From assembly GCA_016840035.1 (NCBI GenBank), contig JAEOTC010000102.1, positions 1 to 25,715 on the forward strand: a stretch of DNA of 25,715 nt, in the 5' to 3' direction. Under the pieces are notes generated by a model. It was not told the origin of the DNA, searched no databases, and was given only the letters and a program-made list of their open reading frames with translations. Shown here piece after piece: positions 6,383 through 25,715 of this stretch. Numbering within the stretch: position 1 is the stretch's first letter; every line of letters begins with the position of its first letter. The position numbers and the translations under genes are program-made. This DNA comes from Candidatus Hodarchaeota archaeon (lineage in GTDB: Archaea > Asgardarchaeota > Heimdallarchaeia > Hodarchaeales > Hodarchaeaceae).

Positions 6383-6498
6383 TTGAATGTAATGTCGCTT
6401 ATCCAACGAACAGTTCCGAAAATAAATTGATAAATAGGGGAGCAATATGCTAGGTCAAAAGGTTTAGTTGAAGAGGAAATAGGCTGTATAAGATAATT

Positions 6499-7650
6499 TT
6501 GGTGAAGAAATTGAATGATAAATTAGTTCAAGATCCGTTGTTCAAGATCTGGGAGAAAGCTTCTAGTACATGGAATTTTGCTAAGAAAGAAGTAATCCCA
6601 AATATTGAGGAGTTAACACCTGAAGGGTTAACACGAATCCTCAAAAAAAAGGGCTACATTAACAAAGGAAAAGTTTTAAAAATAATAAAGCGAGAATCAA
6701 GGGAAGGATTTCATTCAAACGTGCATTTTTTGGAGCTTTATTTTTCTAATGATATTCAAAAAGAAGTAATTTCATCTGAAATAGTTGTTAAGATACCTAA
6801 AACTGATGATTTAAGTAAACTTGCAGGAAAATACGAAGCGAGATTTTTTAAGGTTGTAACAGAAAAGAACAAAGAATTACCAGTTCCAACATGTTATGAT
6901 GTAGCATTTTCTAAAGAAACAGGGTACTCTCATGTTATACTTGAAAATTTATCTAAAACACATGAAGAGTTATCAGATTTGCCTGTTCCTCCTTTAAAAA
7001 AACATTGTGAAAGGGCAATTGAGAGTTTAGCAAAAATCCATGCATTCTGGTGGGATCGGGTTGATGATGATTATCGTATTAACAAAAAAGCTTTTTTTGA
7101 AGTGTATGAAATCAATGAACAAATTATGCATAACGTGCTAAATTTTATAGGAGAAAGAATGAGTAACACACGAAGAAATCTGTATAAAAAAGTTTATTCA
7201 TTATATCCTCAATTGCACTGGAAAAGAATTAGCACTAAAAAGAATTTAACTCTCGTACATGGTGATGCTGGCTTTTGGAATTTTTTCTATCCAAAAAACA
7301 TTGAGAATGAAAAAGAAAAAGCGTATTTAATTGATTGGCAATCATGGAGGCCCGATTTCGGAATGCATGATTTGGCCTACATGATAGGTCTTGAATGGTA
7401 TCCTGAACGAAGATTATTGATGGAAAAAATCCTAATAGAACATTATTATAATGTTCTAGTTGAACAAGGTGTAAAAAATTTCAGCTGGGATGAATGTTGG
7501 TATGACTACAAATTGGCGGCAATTAGAAATCTTTACATCCCAATAAACCAATGTGATATGAAAATTTCTGCATTGTGGTGGTGGCCTCATTTAGAAAGAG
7601 CGTGTCTCACATTTGAAGATTTAAATTGCATGGAGGTATTAGAAAATTAG
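6499..7650 (+). CDS. APH/choline kinase-like small-molecule phosphotransferase (EcKinase/DUF1679-like)
   Basis: VVKIP lysine, EARFF, VPTCY, LAKIHAFWW, Brenner motif LVHGDAGFWN, LIDWQ, DLAYMI. The start codon is uncertain. Confidence 0.88.
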   Translation: MVKKLNDKLVQDPLFKIWEKASSTWNFAKKEVIPNIEELTPEGLTRILKKKGYINKGKVLKIIKRESREGFHSNVHFLELYFSNDIQKEVISSEIVVKIPKTDDLSKLAGKYEARFFKVVTEKNKELPVPTCYDVAFSKETGYSHVILENLSKTHEELSDLPVPPLKKHCERAIESLAKIHAFWWDRVDDDYRINKKAFFEVYEINEQIMHNVLNFIGERMSNTRRNLYKKVYSLYPQLHWKRISTKKNLTLVHGDAGFWNFFYPKNIENEKEKAYLIDWQSWRPDFGMHDLAYMIGLEWYPERRLLMEKILIEHYYNVLVEQGVKNFSWDECWYDYKLAAIRNLYIPINQCDMKISALWWWPHLERACLTFEDLNCMEVLEN

Positions 7651-7692
7651 AGCTTATGATTAATTATGACACCCCTAGTCTTTCATCTTTTT

Positions 7693-7714
7693 ATATAACA
7701 GATGTGCAATAACC
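7693..7714 (+). repeat. 22-bp perfect direct repeat, copy 1 (ATATAACAGATGTGCAATAACC)
   Basis: Identical to 9498-9519. Confidence 0.9.
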
Positions 7715-7854
7715 AACGATATGTAATTTGAAAGAGAGTAATTGGCTTTAGTCAAAATGAAATTGTTTTTACTAGAAATTAATAAGCTTTCCAATAGGAA
7801 TGTCACAGTAAAAATCATAAATCAGCAAATTATAACTGTTCATTTATTCAACTA

Positions 7855-8220
7855 TCAAATGCAATCCCATCGAACCATAATTTGATGAGTTTCTACAATC
7901 ACTACTTTATTAACGACATCCTCAAGTTTATACTTATTTAAAAACTCTTTAAACAAGTCTAAAAAAACTTTTTTGCCTTGAGTCTCTGGTTTTAAGAGAA
8001 TTATTCCGTAAAATGTTCCTCTTGGATGTAGAATGTCATTACTAAAGTCATTATCTAAAGTGATTAGAATTCGTTCTTCTCTTTCGCATAACTGAAGTAA
8101 ATCTTTATCTTCAATACCCATTTTTCCTTCGTGATATACACTGTCAACTTTATGATTTCCCATTGACTCTAGAACTTTTTTAACTGAAAAAGGAGAATTT
8201 TAATCTATTTTAAACTTCAT
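7855..8220 (-). pseudogene. DUF5615 PIN-like toxin (VapC45-like) with an in-frame stop at codon 7
   Basis: ATG 8220 follows a GAGGGG RBS and reads MKFKID*NSPFSVKKVLESMGNHKV..D.DLL..C..EERILITLDNDF. TAA 8200-8202 replaces the Glu of the family's D-E-N motif. Confidence 0.85.
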
Positions 8221-8229
8221 TGATTTCCC

Positions 8230-8469
8230 TCAACTTTCCATTGTTAAGGGAATGACTTCTCCTCTGGCTAAAGAAGCTCCATACATTAGTGCGACATTCA
8301 CATCCCCTTTCTTAAGCGAAGGATACTCTTTGAGTATTTCTTCTTCCCCCATTCCTTCTGCTACACAATCAAGAATAACAGAGACCATGACTCGGGTTCC
8401 TTTGATACAAACTTTACCATGACAAATATTGATGTTTGAAGATATTTGTTCTTTCCATTCTAAAGCCAT
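8230..8469 (-). CDS. DUF433 family antitoxin (VapB45-like)
   Basis: ISSNINICHGKVCIKGTRVMVSVIL...GM.EEEILKEYPSL...DV..AL.Y, directly upstream of the PIN gene. ATG 8469 is preferred over TTG 8475. Confidence 0.92.
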   Translation of the reverse strand: MALEWKEQISSNINICHGKVCIKGTRVMVSVILDCVAEGMGEEEILKEYPSLKKGDVNVALMYGASLARGEVIPLTMES

Positions 8470-8789
8470 TTTCAAACCTTCGATCGACTTATTTGAGTGC
8501 TTATTTTATTAGAAGTTAAATTTTTCAATTTTATTAAGCCTTTCCTTTTTTGACATGGTTTGTTATTAATTTTTATGTAATGCAAGCTATTGTTTGTAAA
8601 ATTATATCTCAGAAAATTTACAAAATATACGGAGGTTCGTATGTAATACCAACGATAAGTGTTTCCAAAAAATTTCGATTTAGTAATAATTTTTCATGTT
8701 CCTTGACAAAATCTACACTACCAGAAAGACTGGTTACTTCTTTTTCAAGGATTTGTACGTAAACTGTAATAGTTTCATAGCAGACTGAA

Positions 8790-9455
8790 TTAGATTGTGA
8801 CTGGATTAAATCCAATGGTAATCAACCATATTCCGAATACAATTTCCTGTAAAGCTATGGGGATATTCAAACCCAGATAAAGTGGTGTTTTGATTGTCGT
8901 AAGATTCAACATTAATGAAAAACTAGCCAATAAAGACAATAGAGCACCAATAAAACCCCAAATAGATAACCATTGAGGGATTAACTGATATTGAAAAAGA
9001 ATAAAATAAAACAGGAGACCACCGATATTTAAAGCCAGTATCATAACCACATGATTCATAAAATCACGACCAGTTCGTAACAAATTCCCTAGAGTTTCAG
9101 CATGTACTGGGTCTAAAGAATCTGAGCTTGAAAAATCCTGGCTTAGAGCCAATAACAAAAATGCTAGCACAATTGCTAAAATGTTAAATATACCTGCAAT
9201 AATGCGAAAACTAACAAAGCCCAGAGATAATTCTTCATTATAGTTATTTAAAGTAGGGAATAGTAAAACAGCTATACCCACATAAGCAAATGCAAGGACA
9301 AATTGTGAGAGTACTCCAAAAATAACTTTCCGCTGATTTTCATAAATCTTACTGAGAAAATTGGGATCATCTATTGCTGGTATAATACTAAGGATGCCGG
9401 CAATAAAAACTACTAAATATAATATTCCAGCAATAACAATCGAATTCATTTCCAA
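8790..9455 (-). CDS. DUF4386-like multi-pass membrane protein
   Basis: IAGILYLVVFIAGILS, GIAVLLFP.L..YN..LSLGFVSFR, LIPQWLSIWGFIG, PIALQEIVFGIWLI.IGF; about 6 TM segments. Confidence 0.8.
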   Translation of the reverse strand: MEMNSIVIAGILYLVVFIAGILSIIPAIDDPNFLSKIYENQRKVIFGVLSQFVLAFAYVGIAVLLFPTLNNYNEELSLGFVSFRIIAGIFNILAIVLAFLLLALSQDFSSSDSLDPVHAETLGNLLRTGRDFMNHVVMILALNIGGLLFYFILFQYQLIPQWLSIWGFIGALLSLLASFSLMLNLTTIKTPLYLGLNIPIALQEIVFGIWLITIGFNPVTI

Positions 9456-9497
9456 TTGCTCTCAAGCTTTAGATGTTAAAAAGCATTACTAGATACA

Positions 9498-9534
9498 ATA
9501 TAACAGATGTGCAATAACCGATATTACACGACAA
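9498..9534 (+). repeat. 22-bp direct repeat, copy 2, running into a dif/Xer-like site
   Basis: 9498-9519 is identical to 7693-7714. 9507-9534 reads ATGTGCAATAA-CCGATA-TTACACGACAA (TAA-N6-TTA core). Confidence 0.8.
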
Positions 9535-9565
9535 ATTCAAGTAATTGGGAAACAAAAATTTCTCG

Positions 9566-9589
9566 AAAGCCAGCTTTGAAAATTATAAT
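9566..9589 (+). repeat. 24-bp imperfect direct repeat, copy 1
   Basis: AAAGCCAGCTTTGAAAATTATAAT versus AAAGCTAGCTTTAACAATTATAAT at 10983-11006 (21/24 identical). Confidence 0.8.
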
Positions 9590-9624
9590 AATAGTTAGGT
9601 GCCGTTTTTCAACGATATAAATTC

Positions 9625-9846
9625 CTATTTTTTGTTCCCTGCTCTATGTAAATCTTCAGTAAACTCAAGAAATTCAAACGCAATTTTTAATCTTCGTTCT
9701 GGAGAGATTTTTCTTGCAGATTCTCCTTCTTGTCTTAAATCCTTCAGACGATCTTTTTTGAATGAAAATATTGCCTTTAGCTCCTTATAATTTGACTGCT
9801 CTGAGCATTCAATGCCCAGATTTTATATTTCTGATAGTAGATACAT
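9625..9846 (-). pseudogene. Small interrupted ORF, antitoxin-like remnant (absent from the ORF track)
   Basis: MYLLSEI*NLGIECSEQSNYKELKAIFSFKKDRLKDLRQEGESARKISPERRLKIAFEFLEFTEDLHRAGNKK*, with TAA at 9823-9825. The SPERRLKIAFEF segment resembles small proteins that precede nucleotidyltransferases; this is from recall only. Confidence 0.35.
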
Positions 9847-10030
9847 TCACTTTTCTGTATATGAACGTATTTGGGAGACTACCATATATTCATAATTTCT
9901 GCAGAAATTCTCATTATTTGGATTTTATCAATAAGATTAGAAATCTTCTTTTTGCATAAATCATAGGATTTCGTGGAAACAATTTTAATCTCATAATTGT
10001 GTGAATTGCAGAATCATGAGTTGAAAAGAA

Positions 10031-10960
10031 ATGAAAAGAACTATTGGGATAATGTTTATAATAATAATCACTTTTCTTTGTCAGAATCTAGTAGTGGACA
10101 AATCAACGGGAATCGATCTACCCCAAAATCCAATCATATTCGTTACTGGATTGGGAGGAACAGGAGAAAATTGGAATGGTGTGTTGGATATGTTTAAAAC
10201 TGATGGATGGCCTAATAGTTCTCTCTTTGCGTACGATTTTGCTGATAATTTAGACTGTTCTGATCAAGGGAATATAAATAATGCTAATCAGATAGCGGGT
10301 TGGGTTACAAATATACTGAGCATTACAGGATCGAATAAAGTTGATATGATTGCTTATAGCATGGGAGGGATAAGTAGTCGTTACTATATGAAGTTTCTTA
10401 ATGGAACTCATTTCGTCGATGATTATGTAAGCATAGCTAGTCCACAACATGGATCGTTGGGAACTGCTTCATGTGATTTCTATTTTGACAAGCCTAATGT
10501 ATTAATTAAAATGTTGAATGAGGGAGATGAAACACCAGGTGGTATTCTAGACGATACTGTGGGAGATCGATATGATGGTATATTGAATATCACATACAAT
10601 GGTACTCATGAACCTGGAAATGTCAATTATACAACGATTTATAGTCCAGATGACAATATCGTTTTCCCTTTTAATACCTCTAAGCTTAATGGAGCTATAA
10701 ACATCTCTTTAGATGGATATTTACATGGACAAATTGACCAAGCAATGTATCGATATATCAGAGAAGCAGTGTATGACTGGAATGATAACATGACTACTAC
10801 AACTACAACATTTCTTTCTTCCACAACAACAAAAACTACACCTACCTCCTCTACTACAACTTCAACCCAAGATAGTACTCCATCTTCATCACCTGGACTT
10901 AATTCCATTGTTCTACTATTCGTTTTGTGTATGATAACTATTTTACGTAAGAAGAAGTAG
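10031..10960 (+). CDS. Surface-anchored lipase/esterase (Lipase_2/EstA-like alpha/beta hydrolase)
   Basis: Signal peptide; PIIFVTGLGG; nucleophile elbow KVDMIAYSMGG; IASPQHG; YTTIYSPDDNIV (Asp); YLHGQI (His); Thr-rich linker, SPGL, TM, RKKK. Confidence 0.9.
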   Translation: MKRTIGIMFIIIITFLCQNLVVDKSTGIDLPQNPIIFVTGLGGTGENWNGVLDMFKTDGWPNSSLFAYDFADNLDCSDQGNINNANQIAGWVTNILSITGSNKVDMIAYSMGGISSRYYMKFLNGTHFVDDYVSIASPQHGSLGTASCDFYFDKPNVLIKMLNEGDETPGGILDDTVGDRYDGILNITYNGTHEPGNVNYTTIYSPDDNIVFPFNTSKLNGAINISLDGYLHGQIDQAMYRYIREAVYDWNDNMTTTTTTFLSSTTTKTTPTSSTTTSTQDSTPSSSPGLNSIVLLFVLCMITILRKKK

Positions 10961-10982
10961 TATGAGGAAGAACTACTCTCTC

Positions 10983-14084: not shown

Positions 14085-14987
14085 TTACCATTTTTTGAGT
14101 ATAAATGATAATATGTATTCATTCACGATGTCGGGTTCTTCTAGATGAGCCCAATGTCCACACTCAGACAAAAACTTAATTTCAAACGAACCTTCAATGT
14201 ATTTCTCCGTTCCCTTGGTTAGAGACTTATCAAGGGCAATATCTTTTTCTCCCCAAATCACAAGAGTTGGACATTTCACTTTTGGTGTTCTCTTTTTGAG
14301 CTTCTCTTGTCTCTCCTTTGTCATGGTCAATATCTTTACAAGATTCCAATTCGCACGGTAATAATTGATACTCGCTGTTAATGCTCCAGGTTGAGACCAT
14401 GCTTCAACATATTTCTTCAATTCCTCCTCACTAAACAAATTGTATCTCGTGGATTCTCTAAGCATTTTTTTTAATATTTCGTAATTATTATTACTCAATA
14501 CTTCTTCTGGACCTTCCATTAATTGGAAAAGGAAAATATACCAGCTCTTCTGAAGCTGACGAAATCTTAGAGACCAAAATGCTTCAACCAATGGTATAGG
14601 ATGAGGACAGTTCAAGATAACGAGATTTTCTACATATTCAGGGGCCATCATCGCAATATTCCATGCCACTGCTCCGCCCCAATCATGACCAACAATGATA
14701 GCCTCACTTTCACCCAATGCTTCTATAAGTGCTGTGATATCTTGAGAAAGGATTAATGTATGATATTTATCCACCCCTATCGGCTTATCACTTTTATTAT
14801 ATCCCCGTAAATCAGGTGTAACAACTCGGTAAGTTTTTGATAACGCATTTATCTGATGTCTCCATGTGTACCAAAAATCTGGAAAGCCATGAAGCATTAT
14901 AAGCAGTTTTCCAGAACCTTTTTCGACATAATGTAATGTCAGGTCACCTAAATCTTGAAAAGAATGATTCCAACCGTTTTTCATCAT
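14085..14987 (-). CDS. Epoxide hydrolase-like alpha/beta hydrolase
   Basis: HGFP oxyanion motif, DLRGY, GHDWGG (Asp nucleophile), SWY and NYYRA tyrosines, WGEKD, GHW. Confidence 0.92.
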   Translation of the reverse strand: MMKNGWNHSFQDLGDLTLHYVEKGSGKLLIMLHGFPDFWYTWRHQINALSKTYRVVTPDLRGYNKSDKPIGVDKYHTLILSQDITALIEALGESEAIIVGHDWGGAVAWNIAMMAPEYVENLVILNCPHPIPLVEAFWSLRFRQLQKSWYIFLFQLMEGPEEVLSNNNYEILKKMLRESTRYNLFSEEELKKYVEAWSQPGALTASINYYRANWNLVKILTMTKERQEKLKKRTPKVKCPTLVIWGEKDIALDKSLTKGTEKYIEGSFEIKFLSECGHWAHLEEPDIVNEYILSFILKKW

Positions 14988-15014
14988 CTTTACCTACATC
15001 TAAACGTCATTTTC

Positions 15015-15383
15015 TTATTCTAGAGCACTGCGAGCTTTATCAAGGTCATCAGCTTCCAAGATTATACGAGAGTTTGTAGCAAGGTAGGTATGACCTAAAT
15101 TAACTCCAGCATTTGCTATTTTGCGAATTGTCTCGCCTAACTCACCAGGTCGATCTTCAAGCTCTATTACAAGAACTTCCTGTTCTTTAACTACCTCTAT
15201 ACCAGCTTTTTCTAGTACACGACGAGCTGTGGGAGCATCTTTTACCAACAGATGAGCTATGGATTTTCCTTCACAAGGAAAGCCACAGTGCCCTTCAATG
15301 TTAATTTTAGCTTTACCTAACGCCTCACATATATCTGCGAATGTGCCTGGCCTATCTTCTACAATTATTGTCAAATCTTTCAT
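15015..15383 (-). CDS. Tandem ACT-domain protein
   Basis: Two ACT repeats, EDRPGTFADICEALGKAKINI and EDRPGELGETIRKIANAGVNL. Start moved to ATG 15383, which follows an AAGGAG RBS. Confidence 0.9.
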   Translation of the reverse strand: MKDLTIIVEDRPGTFADICEALGKAKINIEGHCGFPCEGKSIAHLLVKDAPTARRVLEKAGIEVVKEQEVLVIELEDRPGELGETIRKIANAGVNLGHTYLATNSRIILEADDLDKARSALE

Positions 15384-15402
15384 AAAAATATTTCTCCTTA
15401 AG

Positions 15403-15456
15403 GAGTCTACCAACAGAGTTTTAATGTCTAGCTTACCATCAGATTTTGGTTTTCAG
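15403..15456 (+). repeat. Two overlapping degenerate copies of the intergenic 11-6-11 motif
   Basis: GAGTCTACCAA-CAGAGT-TTTAATGTCTA (15403-15430) and TAGCTTACCAT-CAGATT-TTGGTTTTCAG (15429-15456). Confidence 0.4.
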
Positions 15457-15531
15457 TCACTCGAATAGCTATTATAACAGCGTTATTCTTCCCAATTGAC
15501 CTCTTAGTAATTATTCACCGGAGATAATCAT

Positions 15532-18500
15532 ATGAAACCTGATGTATTGAATAAAAATAAAATGTATTCAAAGATTGTTTTTTTTATATGCTTCTTTATA
15601 TTTATTCTTCTTCTAACTCCTGTAACTTCAATCAATTCTCATGATCCACACTCTTCAGATCAATCCATAGTAAATCGTTTAACCGAAGTAAAATCTGATC
15701 TTGAATTAGCTGAATCAAAGATTCCTACAGCAGATTATGAACCCGAAGCTTACCCCTCATTTCAACTAAAAACGATTAGTCCAAGTGAAAGACAAATCAA
15801 TTTTACCACAGATACACATCCTAAACTTTCATACAATCAAAATTTCTCTGCGTTAATCGGACCATACTATGAGGTGTTTTTTGATGATTTCGACGGAGAT
15901 AATGAACCAGATTTAGTAATAGGGTCAGGTGGAGGATTATTCATTTGGAATTCGACTGGAGGTTTACTTTACCTCAATACAAGCATTAGACCAGACACCC
16001 TGACAGTTGGTAATATAACAGGTGATAGTACACCTGATCTAGTAGTATGTGTGTCTGAGGATTGGTTTGATGACATACCCTCACGGGTATATTTTATTGA
16101 TGGATCAGACTGGTCAATCATCAGATATTTTGAATTTCCTCGAATATATGGGGATATTTTTGATTATGATTCTGGGAGATCTATAGCAGTTGCTGATCTG
16201 GTGGATAATGACAGTATAGATGATGTCATTGTTGGTACCAACGAAGGAGATATTTTAGGAATAAACGGTGCAACAGGAGATCTTTTTATGAATATTACTG
16301 GAGAGGAATGGCAAAATTCCTCCTATATTCTTAGTGTTGGATCTATAGCTATTGCAAATCTTACTGGGGATGCAGTATTAGACTTTTATGTTTCTGAAGG
16401 ATCTAGTGGGGGAGATATTTATGCATTTGATGGAGCTACTAAGAGTAAATTATACCATAAGGTGTTTACCGAACCTCCATTCATATACATTGAGGAATTA
16501 GATATTATTGCCACTGATACCTCTGCAAATAACTTAGAATTTTTGAATAAAAGTACAGGTGAACTGTTATATGAAAATACTGATTCTACGGGTGATATCA
16601 AAGTTGGGGAATTAGTTGATCTTGATAATGACACTATTCCTGACACTATTATATTAGGAACTGATGAAGGCATTTGGTGGATAAATATTACAACAGGGGA
16701 GACAATTAAGTTCACTTCAGAATATCCTAAAATAACTTCATTAGATTTTGATCATTATACACCTAGTGATAATATAATTGATATTGTTGCTGGGTCAAGT
16801 ACAGGAATTGTAACCCTCAATGGTGAAAATGGAGCTAAATTAAGTTATAGTGAAGTTGCGGACGTTCTTGAAGTTCTAGTATATTATGATATTAATAACG
16901 ATAGTTTTTCAGAAGTTGTGGTTATTACTGACATAAGCTATTACCTCGGATTATATCTCTCTTTTTCTGATAATATTGATCCAGTCTTAAAATCTTGTAC
17001 CCTACCAGAATTAGCTTTACAAGGTCATCCACTAGAATTCACTATCACATATAGCGAACCTAATCTTGATACAATCCAAATGGGTTATTTCAGTGGTGGA
17101 GTAAAATATTATACCCAACCTGACTCACTAACCTCTTCAGAAGCCATCTTTTCACTTCCTCCGCTAAAAGAAAGTTCCCTACTTTTCTGGTTCTGGGCAA
17201 ATGATACCATGGGTAATATTGGAACTGAAGGAAATGAAACGGATTACTACGAGCTGATTTTAGCAGGAGATTCAGTATATCTTAATAGCGATGCAACTGA
17301 TGAGATTACAGATATAGAATTAGCTGATTTTACACAGGATGGTATACTTGATATCGTGTTAAGTTCTCGTGATGAAGCAATCTATTTTATTGATGGATCT
17401 AATGGATCAACAATAATGACAAACACAGATCCAACATGGAGCATATATTCTCTTTGTATTATAGATTTTGATAATAATAATATCCCTGATATTGCAGCGA
17501 GTTCCTTGGACGCAGTTTATTTTATTAACGGTAGTACTGGTCAGACAGAATATATTTGCGATACAATAGAAGGTTTCTTAGGTAATATCGATACAGGGGA
17601 TTTCAATGGTGATAACATCGAAGACATTGTCGTTACTACACAGGACGAACCTGATTATTTTAACGCGATTTATTTCATAGATGGAGCAACAGGTGTATTT
17701 ATGCATGGGGTCGTTGGGTTTAACAATCCATCGGAGGTTGGAGTTGCCGATTTTAATACTGATGGAATAGATGATGTAGTGCTAACAACTGATGACGGAA
17801 TTGTATGGTTTTTTGACGGAAGTGATAGTTTAAATTACAAGAATAATACTGATACAGAAGCAGGATTCATAAATTTATATAATGTTCAGTTAGCAATCGC
17901 AGATTTTACAAATGATTCAGTCCCTGATATTGCAGCCAGCTCATATACTAATACTGGAGTGGAAAGCTACTCATCTGTTTTAATTATTGACGGTTCCAGT
18001 TGGTCCACACTCTACGAAACTTCTCATATTGAATTTGCATCAATAAGTAATTTAGCTACAGGAGATTTCAATGGTGATAATATTCCAGATATTGTTGCAA
18101 GTGCAGCAACTGGATCTGAAACAGGTATTTTAGTGTTATTTGATGGCTCTACAGGAGAAATGCTCTACAATTTGACTTTTCAAGGTGAGATTACACATCC
18201 TGATCAGCTTGAACTTGTTGATTTCAATTCAGATAACATTCCTGATATTGTAGTCACGACTGAAGGCCCTAACGCAGTTAATATTGTTGATGGAAGAACC
18301 TTCAAATTGAAGTATACTAAAGATCTTGATTCAACAGCAAGTGGGTCATTAAAAGTTGCTAATTTTAATGACAACGAGTTACCAGAGATAGTTCTCGCAG
18401 GAAGTGGTTCAGATCTGAATTTAAAAGTAATCCAAGCTTTAGGTTTATTAGACGATCTCAGATTTAGTTTATCCTCTCCTACGGGCATTTCACAAGGTGA

Positions 18501-19971
18501 ATCCTTAAATATAGACTTAAATCTTTTTAATAGTTTTAATCATGCTGTTATTGATGCCTCAGTTAGTGTATATGCTCGACGAGTTGACACAGATTTATTT
18601 CAGTCATATATTAGTGTACCTAGAGGTGATGGTACCTATTCTATTGAAATTGGCACCTCTGATTTGGAATTAGGGAAGTGGGAATTGTTTCCAGTAATAA
18701 ACGAAGAGCCTTATGACGAAATTACTATAAGTGATTACCAAGATAGTACAAACTTGAATTACCACCCATATATGACAGTTGATATTGTGGGCCAAGTTTT
18801 AACAACTTATCAAATGACTGCCAAGTCAGGTACTTTTAATCCAGAAATTTATGTAATGCAGAAGGTGACAGAAGGAGATAATGTCACAATAATTATTTCC
18901 ATACAAGATACTTATTATCATACGTTATCATCAGATGATATTAGCGTAACGGTATTTATGGATAATAGAACATACTTAGCATCTTCTACTGAGAAGGGAA
19001 TATTTACTACAACCCTTCTAACCGAAGGATTATATTTTGGTGAATATAATATTACTGTTTTCATATCTGGTAACTACGTTCAAGATCATCAAGAATATCT
19101 AATGTTAGATATTATTCCACAATTTCCTTTGATTGATTTTTCACCAGAATTTCTACTTTTACTTGGAATCATATCATTTATTGTGACTCTTCTATTGATT
19201 ATAGGTTTAAAAGTTACTCATGGTGCTTTTCAAAAATCAGAAGCTTCGGTGTTAAAATCGTTATTAATTGTAATGATTCTCACTACGATCTTCTTTGCTA
19301 TCACGATTGCAGGTAGTATATTCTTCTTTTTTGAAGTCGACCCAATGTTGACTTTTTTTGCATTACTAGTTGGATTTGGTGAAATTATTCTTTTATTCTT
19401 CTTTTGGTTTTCTCGAATTTCGTATCAATACACTCGAGAATTAAGAGTCGGAGTTAAAGCATGGATCCCAATCCTAATACTAGTAGGAGTTATTGCACTC
19501 ATGCTTAATGCAATGATGCTTGTTTCAACTGAAATAGAGTGGTTTGAGTATCGTATGGGTGATAACAGAATTGATTTACTTGTATTTTCTATTCCTCAGT
19601 TATTTTGGGATATTGGAATTGTTGGTTTTGCAACTGGATTTGTCTTTGTAGTTATTTCATCATTTTGGGAAACATACAAAAACATAAAAGAACTTAAAGC
19701 ATTAAACAGGAAAATTCAAGAGGATTACTATCCTAAGGAACCAGAAAAATTCGAAATTGAATTATCTAATATAACAAGTTCATCGTATGTATCACTTTTG
19801 ACATCGTTTATTGGTTGGTATCTACTCATAGTTTTCGCTTTTTTCACAACATTCCAGACCACACCTTATTTTCCTCTCATTGTTGCTGCGGGTATTCCAT
19901 TGGGAATTAATGTTATCATTTTCTTTAGAACAAAGGTTATCGAAATAATAAGATCAGTATTGGGATCCTAA
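15532..19971 (+). CDS. Large surface receptor-like protein: two FG-GAP/VCBS-type beta-propellers, Ig-like domains, C-terminal 7-TM domain
   Basis: Signal peptide; about 15 D(F/L)xxDxxxD(I/L)VV calcium-loop repeats in two blocks separated by an Ig-like domain (FWFWANDTMGN); two further Ig-like segments; seven hydrophobic stretches from about aa 1207. Confidence 0.85.
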   Translation: MKPDVLNKNKMYSKIVFFICFFIFILLLTPVTSINSHDPHSSDQSIVNRLTEVKSDLELAESKIPTADYEPEAYPSFQLKTISPSERQINFTTDTHPKLSYNQNFSALIGPYYEVFFDDFDGDNEPDLVIGSGGGLFIWNSTGGLLYLNTSIRPDTLTVGNITGDSTPDLVVCVSEDWFDDIPSRVYFIDGSDWSIIRYFEFPRIYGDIFDYDSGRSIAVADLVDNDSIDDVIVGTNEGDILGINGATGDLFMNITGEEWQNSSYILSVGSIAIANLTGDAVLDFYVSEGSSGGDIYAFDGATKSKLYHKVFTEPPFIYIEELDIIATDTSANNLEFLNKSTGELLYENTDSTGDIKVGELVDLDNDTIPDTIILGTDEGIWWINITTGETIKFTSEYPKITSLDFDHYTPSDNIIDIVAGSSTGIVTLNGENGAKLSYSEVADVLEVLVYYDINNDSFSEVVVITDISYYLGLYLSFSDNIDPVLKSCTLPELALQGHPLEFTITYSEPNLDTIQMGYFSGGVKYYTQPDSLTSSEAIFSLPPLKESSLLFWFWANDTMGNIGTEGNETDYYELILAGDSVYLNSDATDEITDIELADFTQDGILDIVLSSRDEAIYFIDGSNGSTIMTNTDPTWSIYSLCIIDFDNNNIPDIAASSLDAVYFINGSTGQTEYICDTIEGFLGNIDTGDFNGDNIEDIVVTTQDEPDYFNAIYFIDGATGVFMHGVVGFNNPSEVGVADFNTDGIDDVVLTTDDGIVWFFDGSDSLNYKNNTDTEAGFINLYNVQLAIADFTNDSVPDIAASSYTNTGVESYSSVLIIDGSSWSTLYETSHIEFASISNLATGDFNGDNIPDIVASAATGSETGILVLFDGSTGEMLYNLTFQGEITHPDQLELVDFNSDNIPDIVVTTEGPNAVNIVDGRTFKLKYTKDLDSTASGSLKVANFNDNELPEIVLAGSGSDLNLKVIQALGLLDDLRFSLSSPTGISQGESLNIDLNLFNSFNHAVIDASVSVYARRVDTDLFQSYISVPRGDGTYSIEIGTSDLELGKWELFPVINEEPYDEITISDYQDSTNLNYHPYMTVDIVGQVLTTYQMTAKSGTFNPEIYVMQKVTEGDNVTIIISIQDTYYHTLSSDDISVTVFMDNRTYLASSTEKGIFTTTLLTEGLYFGEYNITVFISGNYVQDHQEYLMLDIIPQFPLIDFSPEFLLLLGIISFIVTLLLIIGLKVTHGAFQKSEASVLKSLLIVMILTTIFFAITIAGSIFFFFEVDPMLTFFALLVGFGEIILLFFFWFSRISYQYTRELRVGVKAWIPILILVGVIALMLNAMMLVSTEIEWFEYRMGDNRIDLLVFSIPQLFWDIGIVGFATGFVFVVISSFWETYKNIKELKALNRKIQEDYYPKEPEKFEIELSNITSSSYVSLLTSFIGWYLLIVFAFFTTFQTTPYFPLIVAAGIPLGINVIIFFRTKVIEIIRSVLGS

Positions 19972-19974
19972 TTC

Positions 19975-20022
19975 GGGAAAGATGGGAATCCCTGCTAGGT
20001 TACTTCTAGCTCTTTCCCCATC
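19975..20022. terminator. Stem-loop between convergent genes (possible terminator or 3' stabiliser)
   Basis: GGGAAAGA 19975-19982 pairs with TCTTTCCC 20011-20018, enclosing GCTAG/CTAGC. It begins 4 bp after the stop codon. Confidence 0.4.
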
Positions 20023-20075
20023 CCTCTTTGATATATTTCTCATCTAGCCTGACATAATTTTGATTATAGAAAATA

Positions 20076-20103
20076 GAAACTTCCAATAGAGTTTTTAAGG
20101 CAT
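20076..20103 (+). repeat. dif/Xer-like 11-6-11 site (candidate)
   Basis: GAAACTTCCAA-TAGAGT-TTTTAAGGCAT. The right arm is 9/11 identical to 11012-11022. It lies between convergent genes and abuts the TrmB stop codon. Confidence 0.5.
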
Positions 20104-20903
20104 TAAGCAACATTAGAACTACTAAAGAATGAAGTAATATTAATTAAACTTGTATCTGAGGTCCAAATAGCGTATACATTGGGGGAAGCCCAATTAGAAA
20201 CTGAAAGCAGATAATTTTGATCGACCATTAAGTAAAAACAATCGCAACATCGTTTGCATATAGTCAATGGTATTTCTGGTAAGTGTGAAGAATCTTCTCT
20301 TAATTTATTCAGAGATTTTTGACATAATCCCGCATTAATCTTTATTCCGGCATCTTGTAACTCCATTAATACAGGCTCAAACTCAAAATACAACTTCGGG
20401 TTGGGAAATCGGATAAGTACCTCTTGACCAACTTTAGCTAACTCTTGATGTATCTTGGCTATAATTGCTCTTCTCCCTTTAATAATGAATGCCATAACTG
20501 ATGGAATTGTAGAAGATGAATCGAATAGAGGAGTTAGTCGTAAGTTTAACTCCTTTACTACCTCCTTTTTCTTAGCATATTCTTTTTCAATAAGTTCTTG
20601 AAGGTTAAGAAGTCCTTCAGATAGTGGTGCAACAATATAATGCTTGGGAGAGGTATTCAGAACCATTAGTATGCCTAGTTGCTCGAGTTCACTCAAAATA
20701 CTATAAATTCTCGAACTTTTTACTCCTGTTGCTCTACAAAGATTACCTGCAGTGGCTTCTTTCTGTTTCACTAATTCCAAATAAACTTGTGCTTGAGTTT
20801 GCGAAAGTCCTGCCTCTATCAGTAAATTCACTAATTTTCCTAGTGTTGAATCAGTGTAAAAATCAGATTTTTCGGATATGGAATTTCCCATGATGTCCAT
20901 CAT
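20103..20903 (-). CDS. TrmB family transcriptional regulator
   Basis: GLSQTQAQVYLEL...TAGNLCRATGVKSSRIYSILSELEQLG...PKHY, coiled coil, IIKGR, and an effector domain with CKRCCDCF..MVD. Confidence 0.9.
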   Translation of the reverse strand: MMDIMGNSISEKSDFYTDSTLGKLVNLLIEAGLSQTQAQVYLELVKQKEATAGNLCRATGVKSSRIYSILSELEQLGILMVLNTSPKHYIVAPLSEGLLNLQELIEKEYAKKKEVVKELNLRLTPLFDSSSTIPSVMAFIIKGRRAIIAKIHQELAKVGQEVLIRFPNPKLYFEFEPVLMELQDAGIKINAGLCQKSLNKLREDSSHLPEIPLTICKRCCDCFYLMVDQNYLLSVSNWASPNVYAIWTSDTSLINITSFFSSSNVA

Positions 20904-20924
20904 TACCTCAAAAAGTTTCTACTT

Positions 20925-20959
20925 GCTACTATTAGTACTTAGTAGCTAACGTTTATATA
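20925..20959. promoter_or_regulatory. TrmB-type operator and bidirectional TATA in a divergent promoter
   Basis: TACT-ATT-AGTA (20927-20937) lies inside the inverted repeat GCTACTA-N8-TAGTAGC (20925-20946). TTTATATA at 20952-20959 reads TATATAAA on the minus strand. Confidence 0.65.
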
Positions 20960-21000
20960 GATTTTCCTGTCTATAATTATCCTGATAATGAGATTTCGGG

Positions 21001-21600
21001 ATGATTCGAATGAAAAAACGAGAAATTTTTAATAAATTGTTTGAAAATGGAATTTCTTACCAAAATTATGTTAATAGAAGTGTTAACTATCAAGAAAAAA
21101 TGGAAGCTAATTATACTGCAGCACAAAAAGCAGCTCAAAAGTTATCAAGGGATCAAATTAATCAAATGAATCAAAAATTACATGTCCTGTGTATTGCGGA
21201 AAATTGGTGTATTGATTGTGCAAATGGAGTTCCCATTATAGCTGTAATTGCAAATCTAATGACAAATTGGGATTTTCGGATTATATCTCGAGATGAGTGG
21301 AAAGAAGGTTTCGATGCATTCTACACTACTGCTGGAAGGAGAAAAATTCCAGTTATTATATTTGCAGATGACGATGGAGATGAGATTATGAGGTGGATTG
21401 AAAGACCAACAAGAAGTTACCAGCTTCTAGGAAAATTAAAGGAACAAAAGTTATCAAAAGAGGAATTTATCCAAAAATACACTGACACGCTTGAATTTCA
21501 ACCTCCCTTTGTTTCTGAAGAGATTATTTCGGAGTTATTTTTTGCAGCAGAAAAAGCTGCATCAATTGTACGCGCTAATCCCACATCAAAAAAGAAGTAA
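21001..21600 (+). CDS. Thioredoxin family protein (Thioredoxin_9-like)
   Basis: LCIAENWCIDCANGVP active site, RIISRD, G.RKIPVIIF, WIERP. Confidence 0.9.
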   Translation: MIRMKKREIFNKLFENGISYQNYVNRSVNYQEKMEANYTAAQKAAQKLSRDQINQMNQKLHVLCIAENWCIDCANGVPIIAVIANLMTNWDFRIISRDEWKEGFDAFYTTAGRRKIPVIIFADDDGDEIMRWIERPTRSYQLLGKLKEQKLSKEEFIQKYTDTLEFQPPFVSEEIISELFFAAEKAASIVRANPTSKKK

Positions 21601-21704
21601 AATACAATTAATAAATTACACTCGGTTTTTCAAATAGCTGAATGTTTTTTTAAGGAGAAAAATCTCAAACATATAATTCAAGACAATTCCAATTTGGGTT
21701 TATT

Positions 21705-22184
21705 ATGGACAAACCGAGAACGTTTGATGAGATTCTAACAAGCGCATATAAACGGATGCATCGATACACTTGTGCAGAAGCCTCACTCCAAGCATTGCTA
21801 GAATTATGGGATTTACCGACTGAACCCCTATCTTGGGCATCTGCTGGTTACTTAGGGGCTATTGGATCGGGTTTCACTACATGTGGTCTAATAATAGGGA
21901 GTTCCATTGCAATTGGTCATAAGTGTGGTTATCTACTTCAGGGAATACCAGAAGAGAATGAGGAAGCTAGGGAAAAGGCAATCCAATTGGTCAATGAGCT
22001 TTATACGGATTTTTATTCTAAGTTTGAGAGTACTGATTGTAAATCTCTGAATACGGTCGATTTTCGTCAAGGGGAAGAAATTACCGATTGGATGATTCAA
22101 AAGGGATGGAAACAGACCTGTGACGTTTTTTTAGACTTTACTATAAGGAAATGCAACTCAATGGCGGAAGAAGGAAGAATCTAG
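21705..22184 (+). CDS. C_GCAxxG_C_C family putative redox-active protein
   Basis: YTCAEA, GAIG...TCGLIIG, F..KFESTDCKSL and a final QTC, matching the family's four-Cys spacing. Confidence 0.8.
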   Translation: MDKPRTFDEILTSAYKRMHRYTCAEASLQALLELWDLPTEPLSWASAGYLGAIGSGFTTCGLIIGSSIAIGHKCGYLLQGIPEENEEAREKAIQLVNELYTDFYSKFESTDCKSLNTVDFRQGEEITDWMIQKGWKQTCDVFLDFTIRKCNSMAEEGRI

Positions 22185-22214
22185 CTTTTCTTTGCAGAAT
22201 TCTGAATTAAATTT

Positions 22215-23627
22215 TTAAGTAAAATGACTAAAAAAAGTTAAAAAGTAGTACAAAGATAATTGACTAGACAATCCGCTTATAAGTCCATCAAACGAATGAT
22301 TAGCCCAGGGAATTTCCAGATACATGTACTCATTGTGGGTAGAATTTAATGCGTGTTGAAGATCCCGGGAATTCCTCACAGATACCAGCGCATCTAGCGA
22401 CCCTGCTGCAATAAACGTTGGTACCATGCCTGATCTATTAATATAACTTACAGGTGACGCTAAATCATATAGAAATGAATCTTCATTCGAGGTCACACCT
22501 AAAATCCGAGAAGACATTTGAGATATCTTACTAATACCATAGATAGATGCGACTCCCCTAACCTTAAGTTCAGAGTAGGTATAATTTCCACAATTCTCAT
22601 TGAAATATGTCACATTTGTCCCGTAAGCAGCCACTAACGATAGTTGAGCTCCAGAGGATCGACCAAATAGAAAAATATTATCCTTATCTCCAGAATAGTG
22701 CTCAGCATTCTCTTTAGCAAACACGATGGCATCACGAACGTCATGAAGCATTCCAGTAAATCTTACCTCAGGATATAATCTATAATTTATTGCAAATACG
22801 GTAAATCCATGAAAAGCAAAGAATTGTGATACACTCTTAATTGGAATATCACTTTTCGATCCGCTAATCCATCCTCCTCCATGAATAACAATTAGAATTG
22901 GATTGGGATTATTCTCATTTGGTATATAGTATACATCAAGACTACTGAAATTGTTGTATTGAATGTTTTTTTGGATCCTAAGTATCGAGGAATCGTAGGA
23001 GTAACCATTCAGATAAACATTGAGAGAAAAAGGTGTTTGTAAGGGAACTAGATCAGAATTAGTATTGAATTCCAAAAACTCTTCTGAAGATACATGTGGA
23101 CGAATTGAAGTAACTTGGAAATAGGGGTAAATAATGATGACAAATAGTATTAACGTCGAAAGAAAGCTAACCTGATGAATTTTGGATAATTTCTGTATTT
23201 CACCAGTAGTAAATTTCTGAAAACTTATCCTTAGGCCGATGTAAATTATAATAACCGTCAATTTTACTCCGATCCAGAAATTGAACTCCTTTAACCAGTA
23301 AGCTGAAAAGGAGAAACCTAAAATATAAAAGATCCATGAACCGAGAATTAGAAAACCTATCATTGTCTTCCAATCTCGAATCATTCGAGTCAGGAAGGTA
23401 TTAGACACATCAGACTTATCATTCTTGTAGAAAAGATAAATATGATAAATGATAACAAGACTTAAAATTAACAGGAATGAATATTGGTACATTTGAATCC
23501 CAAAGATCACGATGATACTCTCGAGAATGTACCGAAGAATCACAGGGAGAATTACAAACGCTAAGAGAAGAGCTAGAAGTACTAGTAACCATTTTATTCC
23601 TCTAACAAGGAATTTACTCTTTTTCAT
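22215..23627 (-). CDS. Membrane-bound HSL-family (BD-FAE-like) esterase/lipase
   Basis: About 5 N-terminal TM segments; IHGGGW, INYRL, GRSSG nucleophile, GSLDALV (Asp), ANHSFD (His). Confidence 0.9.
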   Translation of the reverse strand: MKKSKFLVRGIKWLLVLLALLLAFVILPVILRYILESIIVIFGIQMYQYSFLLILSLVIIYHIYLFYKNDKSDVSNTFLTRMIRDWKTMIGFLILGSWIFYILGFSFSAYWLKEFNFWIGVKLTVIIIYIGLRISFQKFTTGEIQKLSKIHQVSFLSTLILFVIIIYPYFQVTSIRPHVSSEEFLEFNTNSDLVPLQTPFSLNVYLNGYSYDSSILRIQKNIQYNNFSSLDVYYIPNENNPNPILIVIHGGGWISGSKSDIPIKSVSQFFAFHGFTVFAINYRLYPEVRFTGMLHDVRDAIVFAKENAEHYSGDKDNIFLFGRSSGAQLSLVAAYGTNVTYFNENCGNYTYSELKVRGVASIYGISKISQMSSRILGVTSNEDSFLYDLASPVSYINRSGMVPTFIAAGSLDALVSVRNSRDLQHALNSTHNEYMYLEIPWANHSFDGLISGLSSQLSLYYFLTFFSHFT

Positions 23628-23640
23628 TTTGTATCGATTT

Positions 23641-23665
23641 AATGTCTTTTATCCATCAAACATTT
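23641..23665 (+). repeat. Dispersed intergenic repeat
   Basis: AATGTCTTTTATCCATCAAACATTT is 20/25 identical to 6391-6415 and fills most of a 41-bp intergenic gap. Confidence 0.65.
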
Positions 23666-23668
23666 CTC

Positions 23669-25426
23669 TTATTTTTTCCTAAAACGCTTTTTTTGCCTTC
23701 TAGTTATGAAAGTAACTCCAATTAAAAAGAAAATACCACTAGATGGGGCACTAGATGGTTCAGTAGTTGTTGAGAGGGTAAGAGTGGTAGTTGTTGTTGT
23801 TGTTGTATCTGGTAATTCTGAGGTTATGGTAAACGGACTATCCGAAATTATCTCAGTTTCTAATCCATCTGTAGAACAAACTTTCACCTTCAATAAATAG
23901 TTGCCTTCTGGATATGAACTAATATCCCAGGTATAAGACGTATCCAGTAAGCTAGAAGAAATTTCAGTCCATTCGACTGCAGAAACAATTTTTGTATGAA
24001 CGTTATACGATAAAACACGTTTTAATGGGTTTGCTGACGGAGTCCATTCTATAGTAACAACTCCTGTTACTTCTTGACCACTAGAGGGATATAAAATACT
24101 AATAGGTGCTAATGTTCCGGTACTGTATACTAATGGTCTTGAATCCTCATTTACAGAGTTCCCCAAAAAGCTGTAGGGTTGATCCACGATGCCATCATTG
24201 TTTGAATCCGGGGAAGTGTAATCAGACCAATAGTTATAACTAACATTGTTTTCTTCAAATGTATTATCAAAATCTGTTACTTGTGAATTGCCTGTAGGAT
24301 TGTTATTGATGAATTCATTTCTGAATATCTGATTATTTGATGAGACTTCAAGTATCAACCCGAAAGCGGTAGAATTTTTAATTAAATTGTCATAATACAT
24401 TGCTGAATCTGCGTTCCAACTGTGAATTCCGTCGTGGTTATTCAAAAGTATGTTATGAGATATAATCGAATTATTCACGATATTTCTTGCATGTATACCT
24501 ATTTCATTTCCTATCAATGTATTGTACGAAACATTAGTATTCCAGCTAAACAATAATAAAATCCCATAATAATCATCTTGAACCTCATTCCATTCAACAA
24601 CTGAATGATTTGAGTACCGTATAGTTATTCCCTGTGTACCAGCACCATAGATTTTATTATGCAATACTGTTGCATTGGGAGAGTTAGTAGAGGCAAGAGA
24701 ATGAGCAACCATATTCCTGATGACAGTGTTATTCAAGAGCGAACTGTGAGGTGATCCATCCGCAAGTTCTATTGCTGCATAATAACTTTCAAACACATAA
24801 TTATTTGCGACATATGCATAAGGTGATCCATAAACATACATTCCATAACCAGTCGAGAGACTAGTTCCTGCATGAATAACTCGGTTATATGTTATTTTTG
24901 ACCTTCGGGAACTATGAAGCGTTATTCCGTCTTGGTACGAATTTTCAACCGTATTATTCTTAATCATGGCATAGGGGGAAGATTCTAACCATATTCCTTC
25001 GGATCCACTGTTAATTACAGTTGTATTCACGATTTGGCCATACGTGACATTGGAAAAGTGTATACCATCAGCTCCTCCATCGAGGTAACAACCTGTGATT
25101 CGGAAGTGTAAATTTGTATTACGAATCGTGATTCTATTCCCAGAGGTACCTGAAATATTTAGATTTTGTATTAACAGTGGATGTGTAATGTTCCCTAACA
25201 AAAAAACATCCCCACTAGCATTTACAAAGTCGATTAACTCTTGATTTCCATTTATTAATAATGGAGGAGTATCAATTAAACTTATCGAAGAACTGATATT
25301 ATGGCTTCTATGTTGCGTACCAGCATTCAATATCCTAATAGATGACCCTAAGAACACTAAAAGTGTAATAAATACCAGAAAGAATACTAGCTTTTTCTTG
25401 TCATTATTTCTTTTGTCCTTTCTCAT
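23669..25426 (-). CDS. Surface protein: parallel beta-helix (NosD-like), Ig/FN3-like domain, Thr-rich linker, C-terminal anchor; paralog of 2477..5113
   Basis: Signal peptide; GIxLxxSxxxxIxNN repeats; NYWSDYTSPDSNNDGIVDQPY; YTWDISSYPEGNYLLKV; tail TTTTTTTT...SGIFFLIGVTFITRRQKKRFRKK. Confidence 0.88.
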   Translation of the reverse strand: MRKDKRNNDKKKLVFFLVFITLLVFLGSSIRILNAGTQHRSHNISSSISLIDTPPLLINGNQELIDFVNASGDVFLLGNITHPLLIQNLNISGTSGNRITIRNTNLHFRITGCYLDGGADGIHFSNVTYGQIVNTTVINSGSEGIWLESSPYAMIKNNTVENSYQDGITLHSSRRSKITYNRVIHAGTSLSTGYGMYVYGSPYAYVANNYVFESYYAAIELADGSPHSSLLNNTVIRNMVAHSLASTNSPNATVLHNKIYGAGTQGITIRYSNHSVVEWNEVQDDYYGILLLFSWNTNVSYNTLIGNEIGIHARNIVNNSIISHNILLNNHDGIHSWNADSAMYYDNLIKNSTAFGLILEVSSNNQIFRNEFINNNPTGNSQVTDFDNTFEENNVSYNYWSDYTSPDSNNDGIVDQPYSFLGNSVNEDSRPLVYSTGTLAPISILYPSSGQEVTGVVTIEWTPSANPLKRVLSYNVHTKIVSAVEWTEISSSLLDTSYTWDISSYPEGNYLLKVKVCSTDGLETEIISDSPFTITSELPDTTTTTTTTLTLSTTTEPSSAPSSGIFFLIGVTFITRRQKKRFRKK

Positions 25427-25715
25427 CTCTTTTCTTCCTGAAAAATTTGATTAGTGCTTCTTTAGGGATAAGTTCCTATTTAAAGTTAGAGTTCCGAATA
25501 AAAGTTTCTTTGTTTTTTGTAGTACTCAGTTTCATTCAATAATTGGTTTTACTTTATTCTAGTAATTCAATTCTGATTGAGATAGATCATAAGACTTGGT
25601 TGTGGAGAAGATTCTTGGGAAAGTCCATAGAATCTAAATTGGGCATCTAGAAAAGTATTCAAAAATGATATTTGCCAACGACTTTTCTTTGAATTTAATG
25701 TAGCATTAATAGATA

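Follow-up and report, generated by a model that had tools for sequence, protein, structure and literature searches.

The window analysed here, a stretch of 25,715 nucleotides (contig JAEOTC010000102.1 of assembly GCA_016840035.1, Candidatus Hodarchaeota archaeon), contains a gene at 15532–19971 whose product joins an integrin-like propeller ectodomain to a C-terminal domain of seven membrane helices. This seven-helix domain – called the module below – forms a family of its own that is restricted to Asgard archaea, and no relative of it could be detected among known folds. Its most probable role, to which we give a probability of roughly 0.6, is that of a rigid multi-helix membrane base for an adhesive, glycosylated ectodomain, with a free cytoplasmic hairpin that is possibly coupled to a partner. 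From its sequence, the whole protein is predicted to be a giant surface protein, exported by the Sec pathway and N-glycosylated, of a Hodarchaeales archaeon from marine sediment. An earlier note on this DNA had described an architecture like that of an adhesion G-protein-coupled receptor (GPCR) and had proposed a contact-sensing receptor that needs a separate cytoplasmic partner.

The topology given in the earlier note – seven hydrophobic stretches, in an orientation that leaves the N-terminus extracellular and the C-terminus cytoplasmic (N-out/C-in) – was borne out by hydropathy, structure prediction and charge. The hydrophobic segments found by hydropathy (residues 1207–1226, 1244–1267, 1272–1293, 1310–1331, 1357–1379, 1418–1440 and 1445–1464, numbered below as transmembrane helices TM1 to TM7) correspond to the seven long helices of an AlphaFold2 model of the module. 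Built from an alignment of 20 relatives, this model has a predicted local distance difference test (pLDDT) score of 87 and a predicted template modelling (pTM) score of 0.84; prediction from the single sequence gave a pLDDT of 56 and was unusable. In every one of the 41 aligned modules the predicted inner loops carry more lysine and arginine than the outer loops, and the topology is therefore N-out/C-in. The loop charges first noted in the window protein also hold across the family, with mean net charges of +1.4 for the first and +2.2 for the second intracellular loop, +2.1 for the C-terminal tail, −1.7 for the N-terminal side and −1.9 for the second extracellular loop. Neither six nor eight helices were predicted for the window protein, nor an external C-terminus, and its membrane domain had no confident match among permease or anchor families.

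Two cytoplasmic elements that had been noticed from the sequence are also present in the model. The loop between TM5 and TM6 is indeed 38 residues long and helical, being made of extensions of the two helices joined by a 9-residue turn, and the amphipathic stretch after TM7 forms a separate short helix. The protein ends 15 residues past TM7. Homodimer prediction for the module scored 0.30 against a mark of 0.42, which gives no verdict and is used neither way.

When 1.84 billion representative proteins were searched exhaustively with phmmer, only 23 were returned, with the module C-terminal in all of them and E values of 7e-47 to 6e-8 against the 22 other representatives. All of the named members are from metagenome-assembled genomes (MAGs) of Heimdallarchaeota, Kariarchaeaceae or Promethearchaeota, and public annotations call the relatives FG-GAP, PQQ or WD40 repeat proteins, or hypothetical. 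Of 400 Asgard genomes searched with a profile, 51 contain the module, always at the C-terminal end of its open reading frame (ORF). Most of these ORFs encode 700–2500 amino acids, some being curtailed by contig ends. Few members were recovered by word-index homology searches, and a search for related loci with the protein alone as query gave none. No family in Pfam or NCBIfam matches the module. A sub-threshold LapA_dom match in 7 of 20 members, which covers only TM5 and the charged helix that follows it, was rejected as an identity – it reflects a generic pattern of a hydrophobic plus a charged helix. No description of the module was found in the literature on Asgard FG-GAP, integrin-like, GPCR or seven-transmembrane (7TM) proteins.

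The membrane domain recurs in Asgard genomes with swapped ectodomains, which the earlier note had proposed as a check. All close members carry FG-GAP propellers. The heads of distant members, whose subfamily has ORFs of ca. 1,850 amino acids, consist of Invasin_D3/Big_1 immunoglobulin-like (Ig-like) domains only, or of BNR repeats in a protein with a C-terminal double zinc ribbon. Because distant members retain the module under these other heads, it is an independent evolutionary unit. Among close orthologues the head, stalk and base are conserved to a similar degree (74–85% identity); one intact orthologue, P0002, is 80% identical to the window protein.

Several relatives carry additions after the module. 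The ORF at 6423–10982 (+) of locus L053 (G169:C4), with a BNR-repeat head, is the one in which the double zinc ribbon (DZR) follows the module, a rare folded cytoplasmic fusion. Three close relatives (P0003, P0009 and P0004) have an eighth hydrophobic helix, which would put the C-terminus outside, and two others (P0018 and P0008) have long acidic tails.

Conservation was measured in the alignment of the 41 modules. Only W1337 and P1355 are invariant, and three other residues – P1199 (93%), F1338 and F1426 – are conserved in at least 90%. The outer face holds four of the five, the exception being F1426 in TM6. The outer motifs are I-I-P-x-F-P next to the membrane (residues 1194–1199), I-x-W-F-x-Y after TM4, with W1337, and I-P before TM5, with P1355. 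None of the five best conserved residues is of a catalytic type, the 41 modules share no conserved polar residue within the membrane, and the module has no cysteine. Nor do the 41 modules have an invariant intramembrane Ser, His, Cys or Glu like that of rhomboids, CAAX proteases or archaeosortases, and Pfam gave no match. As no polar or catalytic residue within the membrane is invariant, the module does not appear to be an enzyme or a classical transporter.

Inside the cell, the TM5–TM6 hairpin has at its tip the motif Y-Y-P-K-x-P-x-K in the Heimdall-type subfamily, to which the window protein belongs, and G-T-P in the distant subfamily; P1404 in the hairpin is 83% conserved. An arginine at the cytoplasmic end of TM3 is conserved in 71% of the whole family, and in the distant subfamily this site is a near-invariant W-L-Y-R-D (residues 1292–1297 in the window protein). 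By position, the site recalls the D-R-Y of GPCRs, with no evidence of common descent.

These patterns suggest a seven-helix module that serves as a rigid base under the ectodomain. The conserved outer face, made up of the I-I-P-x-F-P strand and the TM4–TM5 helix and hairpin with I-x-W-F-x-Y, would dock the last domain of the stalk, and docking would hold the ectodomain in a fixed orientation on a cell without a rigid wall. The TM5–TM6 hairpin with its proline tip, together with the basic helix after TM7, would be the sole conserved cytoplasmic surface, free to contact a partner encoded elsewhere.

Some points weigh against this reading. That the stalk docks on the outer face would follow from residue conservation only, and the structural claims depend on a predicted model. 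Most archaeal surface proteins have a single-helix or lipid anchor; seven helices and a conserved hairpin are over-elaborate for an anchor, which favours some signalling or coupling role. In addition, the other 21 genomes of the genus either lack the gene or have it in decayed form, and so it is dispensable there.

The profile search found no module in any of these 21 genomes, and among all 22 only the window gene is intact. A second copy of the locus is found in the same assembly (G000, contig C188:36238–41434, partly covered by locus L002), with 84–93% nucleotide identity to window 14100–25715. This copy has a clean deletion of window 15410–19775, which leaves approximately the last 65 codons of the gene with a TGA inside them, and it also lacks window 21597–23650, with the C_GCAxxG_C_C and BD-FAE esterase genes. 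It belongs either to a co-binned close relative or to a segmental duplicate. Another remnant is in genome G059 (L065, G059:C11:534000–546000, at 4031–4209 and 7646–7840, minus strand), where the first 65 codons contain a stop and the last 60 or so are frameshifted. Unrelated ORFs, among them an ATC_hydrolase, fill the 3.4 kb between the two ends, and the flanking sequence is unlike that in the window; this decay event is independent of the one on C188. The two remnants thus indicate that the gene is dispensable and has been lost at least twice in the genus.

A rival explanation, that of the earlier note, is a signalling receptor. In such a receptor, binding or mechanical load at the propellers would repack the seven helices, and the TM5–TM6 hairpin and the helix after TM7 would relay the change to a separately encoded partner. 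This alternative is possible, though we consider it doubtful. The uniform N-out/C-in topology of the 41 modules is consistent with it, as are a cytoplasmic TM5/TM6 hairpin with a tip motif conserved within each subfamily, the arginine at the end of TM3 (71%), the cytoplasmic double zinc ribbon of one distant member and acidic tails of others, and the reuse of the module under different heads, as with receptor cores. However, the best conserved residues are outside and not cytoplasmic, and the window protein has no fused output domain – the domain order is as first noted, with no kinase, cyclase or helix-turn-helix domain. The support for a contact-sensing receptor does not exceed that for a base with a purely structural role.

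Gene neighbourhoods also argue against a receptor. Seventeen loci from several families, compared all against all, have no conserved partner gene and no neighbour in common, except for NosD-like surface proteins in 4 of the loci. GTPase or arrestin-like genes, which the earlier note had named as possible neighbours, adjoin the family genes in none of the 17 loci, the rest of the genome not having been searched, and no longin adaptor gene lies beside the window gene. Conserved synteny that includes a response regulator is found in the distant clade, but the regulator is convergent and the arrangement is confined to one family.

In this arrangement (L048, 5848–7938 (+), and likewise L049, L054 and L055) a response-regulator receiver gene and a gene for a 548-residue protein of no known family face the 3’ end of the giant gene in convergent orientation. 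The pair, present in four genomes of one family, represents either a functional link or plain inherited synteny. The TrmB-family gene convergent to the window gene was compared with the DUF7347 gene beside P0006, and the two are not homologous.

A more specific form of signalling is that the module is an Asgard-invented signal-transducing core, which would relay binding or force from interchangeable adhesive heads through the TM5–TM6 hairpin to a cytoplasmic partner such as the cytoskeleton or a small GTPase. This proposal is speculative and, in our estimate, unlikely.

The protein resembles adhesion GPCRs (class B2, with the latrophilins and the ADGRG family) in layout. Both have a large adhesive ectodomain on a stalk above seven helices oriented N-out/C-in, with a long cytoplasmic element between TM5 and TM6; in both, TM7 is followed by a short helix, and no enzymatic output is fused. 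A 7TM domain with this orientation is, however, shared by many unrelated families besides GPCRs. The window protein differs from adhesion GPCRs in having no GAIN or GPS match in Pfam, no match to a 7tm family (at E 1 for the whole protein and E 5 for 20 module sequences) and none of the class motifs – a motif scan found no DRY, NPxxY, CWxP or GPS – and no link to G proteins or arrestins was found beside the family genes. The caution of the earlier note, which reported no DRY, NPxxY or GPS and claimed no homology to GPCRs, was justified; its term “adhesion-GPCR-like” does not extend beyond the layout.

Structure comparisons gave the same result. The top rows of a Foldseek search of PDB were mostly GPCRs, but these were non-significant (E of at least 0.4, TM-scores of 0.15–0.23), and no PDB match reached E 0.001. 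In a wide VIA-align search and a re-examination of the Foldseek hits, GPCR and rhodopsin chains had Z values of 6–7 with a root mean square deviation (rmsd) of 12–14 Å (12–13 Å for rhodopsin). They ranked below designed helical bundles (Z 10), which with the dynamin stalk and the TorS sensor made up top rows at Z 8–10 that are themselves within the tool’s stated helical background. A shape search of the ESM Atlas gave TM-scores of at most 0.36, and a language-model feature search of the same resource gave no usable match. Two candidates from sequence profiles were rejected: ADGRG4, found at E 0.08 with the module profile against PDB sequences, is a biased hydrophobic alignment, and ZnT4 (E 5e-4, 22.7 bits) is a hydrophobic alignment with a bias of 5.5 between helices that do not correspond. 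With no convincing profile, motif or fold match, the likeness to adhesion GPCRs is one of layout only.

It is therefore highly improbable that the module is a very remote true homologue of eukaryotic GPCRs, as an ancestor of adhesion GPCRs, or of microbial rhodopsins. The shared helix count and orientation, the long TM5–TM6 loop, the short helix after TM7, the prevalence of GPCRs among the non-significant Foldseek rows and a host from the archaeal group held closest to eukaryotes would all agree with such descent. The fold scores, the missing motifs and the biased ADGRG4 alignment do not, and neither rhodopsin profiles nor those of 7TMR-DISM_7TM or its ectodomains matched any of the 20 members at E 5. 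TM7 (residues 1445–1464) has no lysine at all, and thus none to bind retinal, and the Bac_rhodopsin profile did not match.

A channel or transporter gated by the ectodomain is improbable as well. Partial VIA-align matches to the four-helix membrane domains of pentameric ligand-gated channels (Z 8–9, rmsd 2.7–3.3 Å over ca. 120 residues) are in its favour, but they take in under half of the residues and do not rise above the tool’s helical-bundle background. The weak ZnT4 match would point to a transporter were it not for the hydrophobic bias and mismatched helices described above, and the transporter rows of the ESM Atlas search do not exceed a TM-score of 0.36. In most close members TM5 starts, on the outer side, with an acidic residue, and some have a glutamate in TM3; no polar residue embedded in the membrane, however, is conserved in the 41 members.

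Prokaryotic proteins of similar plan are the 7TMR-DISM receptors, in which an extracellular binding domain precedes seven helices and the N-terminus is outside. These receptors, reportedly described by Anantharaman and Aravind in 2003, are bacterial and have fused kinase, cyclase or phosphatase outputs. The window protein is from an Asgard archaeon, has no fused output and does not match their profiles.

Table 1. Features of the propeller and seven-helix gene, in window coordinates.
Feature	Position	Strand	Basis and remarks
Whole gene	15532..19971	+	1479 codons plus stop; N-terminus conserved in P0002 and the G059 remnant
Signal peptide (predicted)	15532..15636 (aa 1–35)	+	Lys-rich n-region, hydrophobic core at ca. 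aa 14–30, small-residue stretch; hydropathy
First FG-GAP propeller block	15829..16971 (ca. aa 100–480)	+	Pfam FG-GAP/FG-GAP_3 and PQQ_2; motif scans
Inter-propeller domain	16972..17301 (ca. aa 481–590)	+	Small and conserved, 25–85% identity to relatives
Second FG-GAP propeller block	17302..18411 (ca. aa 591–960)	+	Pfam FG-GAP, FG-GAP_3 and Beta-prop_FAM234A_B; alpha-V match; motif scan
Stalk	18412..19116 (ca. aa 961–1195, ca. 230 residues)	+	Probably two Ig-like beta-sandwich domains; ends in I-I-P-x-F-P
Orphan seven-helix membrane module, N-out/C-in	19117..19968 (aa 1196–1479)	+	Hydropathy; AlphaFold2; positive-inside rule in 41/41
TM4–TM5 outer loop, short helix and beta-hairpin	19525..19599 (aa 1332–1356)	+	AlphaFold2; most conserved part of the module
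Cytoplasmic TM5–TM6 helical hairpin	19669..19782 (aa 1380–1417, 38 aa)	+	AlphaFold2; alignment
Short amphipathic basic helix after TM7, cytoplasmic side	19927..19962 (aa 1466–1477)	+	AlphaFold2, helix 277–288 of the module

The ectodomain (Table 1) begins with a signal peptide, recognised earlier and again by hydropathy, which peaks at residues 16–34 (Kyte-Doolittle 2.66) after the lysine-rich start. Two propeller families match above their Pfam cut-offs, FG-GAP_3 in 6 stretches (E 1.2e-20) and FG-GAP in 5 (E 4.4e-19), and the propeller of integrin alpha-V was matched at E 2.6e-5 in a search of PDB sequences. Of the calcium loops counted in the earlier note, the eight in the second block were all recovered, at residues 599, 645, 690, 740, 791, 845, 897 and 944 with a spacing of 45–55 residues; the seven in the first block were recovered only roughly, five being clear (residues 119, 161, 222, 363 and 453) and the remainder degenerate. 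By these family matches the head is of the integrin-alpha type and would bind a ligand or a surface. The domain between the propellers had no match in a Pfam search.

The Ig-like nature proposed for the stalk is plausible, although matches in the protein itself were all sub-threshold (Big_7, E 0.13); it is the relatives that lend support. The stalk is 31% identical to that of P0010 (E 5e-40), which has a sub-threshold Invasin_D3 match (23 bits against a cut-off of 33), and distant members match Invasin_D3 and Big_1 above the cut-off. The ectodomain contains 23 N-x-S/T sequons, compared to 13.2 ± 3.2 in shuffled sequences, and the module has a single sequon, in a cytoplasmic loop. This enrichment fits an exported archaeal protein.

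Integrin alpha subunits share with the window protein an FG-GAP propeller with calcium-loop motifs, followed by Ig-like leg domains and the membrane. The differences are substantial – the window protein has two propellers, and seven helices rather than one helix with a GFFKR tail; it has no Integrin_alpha2 match, and no gene for a beta-like (vWA) subunit is adjacent in the window. FG-GAP propellers are widespread in prokaryotic surface proteins, and the propeller alone therefore does not make the protein an integrin. Integrin-repeat proteins in Asgard genomes are already known, according to a passage of PMC9258230 that cites Liu et al. 2021.

The gene is a single unbroken frame, as given in the earlier note, in DNA with a GC content of 32–36%. 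An intact frame of 1479 codons at this composition, conserved in 40 relatives, is far beyond chance. GGAG lies 8 nt 5’ of the ATG, and a TATA-like TATTATAA is found ca. 55 nt upstream of the gene. The gene stands alone, with an ACT-domain gene diverging upstream and a TrmB-family regulator converging downstream. Elongation factor 2 of the host genome is 94–95% identical to that of ‘Candidatus Hodarchaeota’ and Heimdallarchaeota MAGs, which identifies the host as an Asgard archaeon of the Hodarchaeales group, in line with the Asgard setting that the check proposed in the earlier note presupposed. Matching DNA is present in marine-sediment metagenomes from two studies, one of which is possibly the source sample; no RNA dataset was listed with the gene.

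Near the gene, the window includes three others of the alpha/beta-hydrolase or lipase type (Lipase_2, Abhydrolase_1 and BD-FAE, at 10031–10960 (+), 14085–14987 (−) and 22215–23627 (−)), all less than 10 kb away from it. Relatives at L003, L056 and L044 likewise have hydrolase or lipase genes nearby; the two hydrolases that were compared are only distantly alike. Two large paralogous proteins are encoded at 2477–5113 (−) and 23669–25426 (−). Relatives of these paralogues occur near seven-helix members in three other genomes (L044, L051 and L057), and the one at L057 is a NosD/beta-helix protein by Pfam. Their proximity to module genes may be a matter of surface-protein genes clustering together.

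Asgard archaea have no rigid wall, and their contacts with partner cells are made at the surface by molecules that are largely uncharacterised. For the module described here, an attractive but unsupported analogy to GPCRs is corrected. If the module only anchors the ectodomain, archaeal surface proteins would have a membrane base of a new kind. A signalling module would instead connect the cell surface with the cytoplasm, by a route open to testing, in the prokaryotes most closely related to eukaryotes, and the signal-transducing core considered above, if true, would have evolved independently in those same organisms as a prokaryotic counterpart of adhesion-type 7TM receptors.

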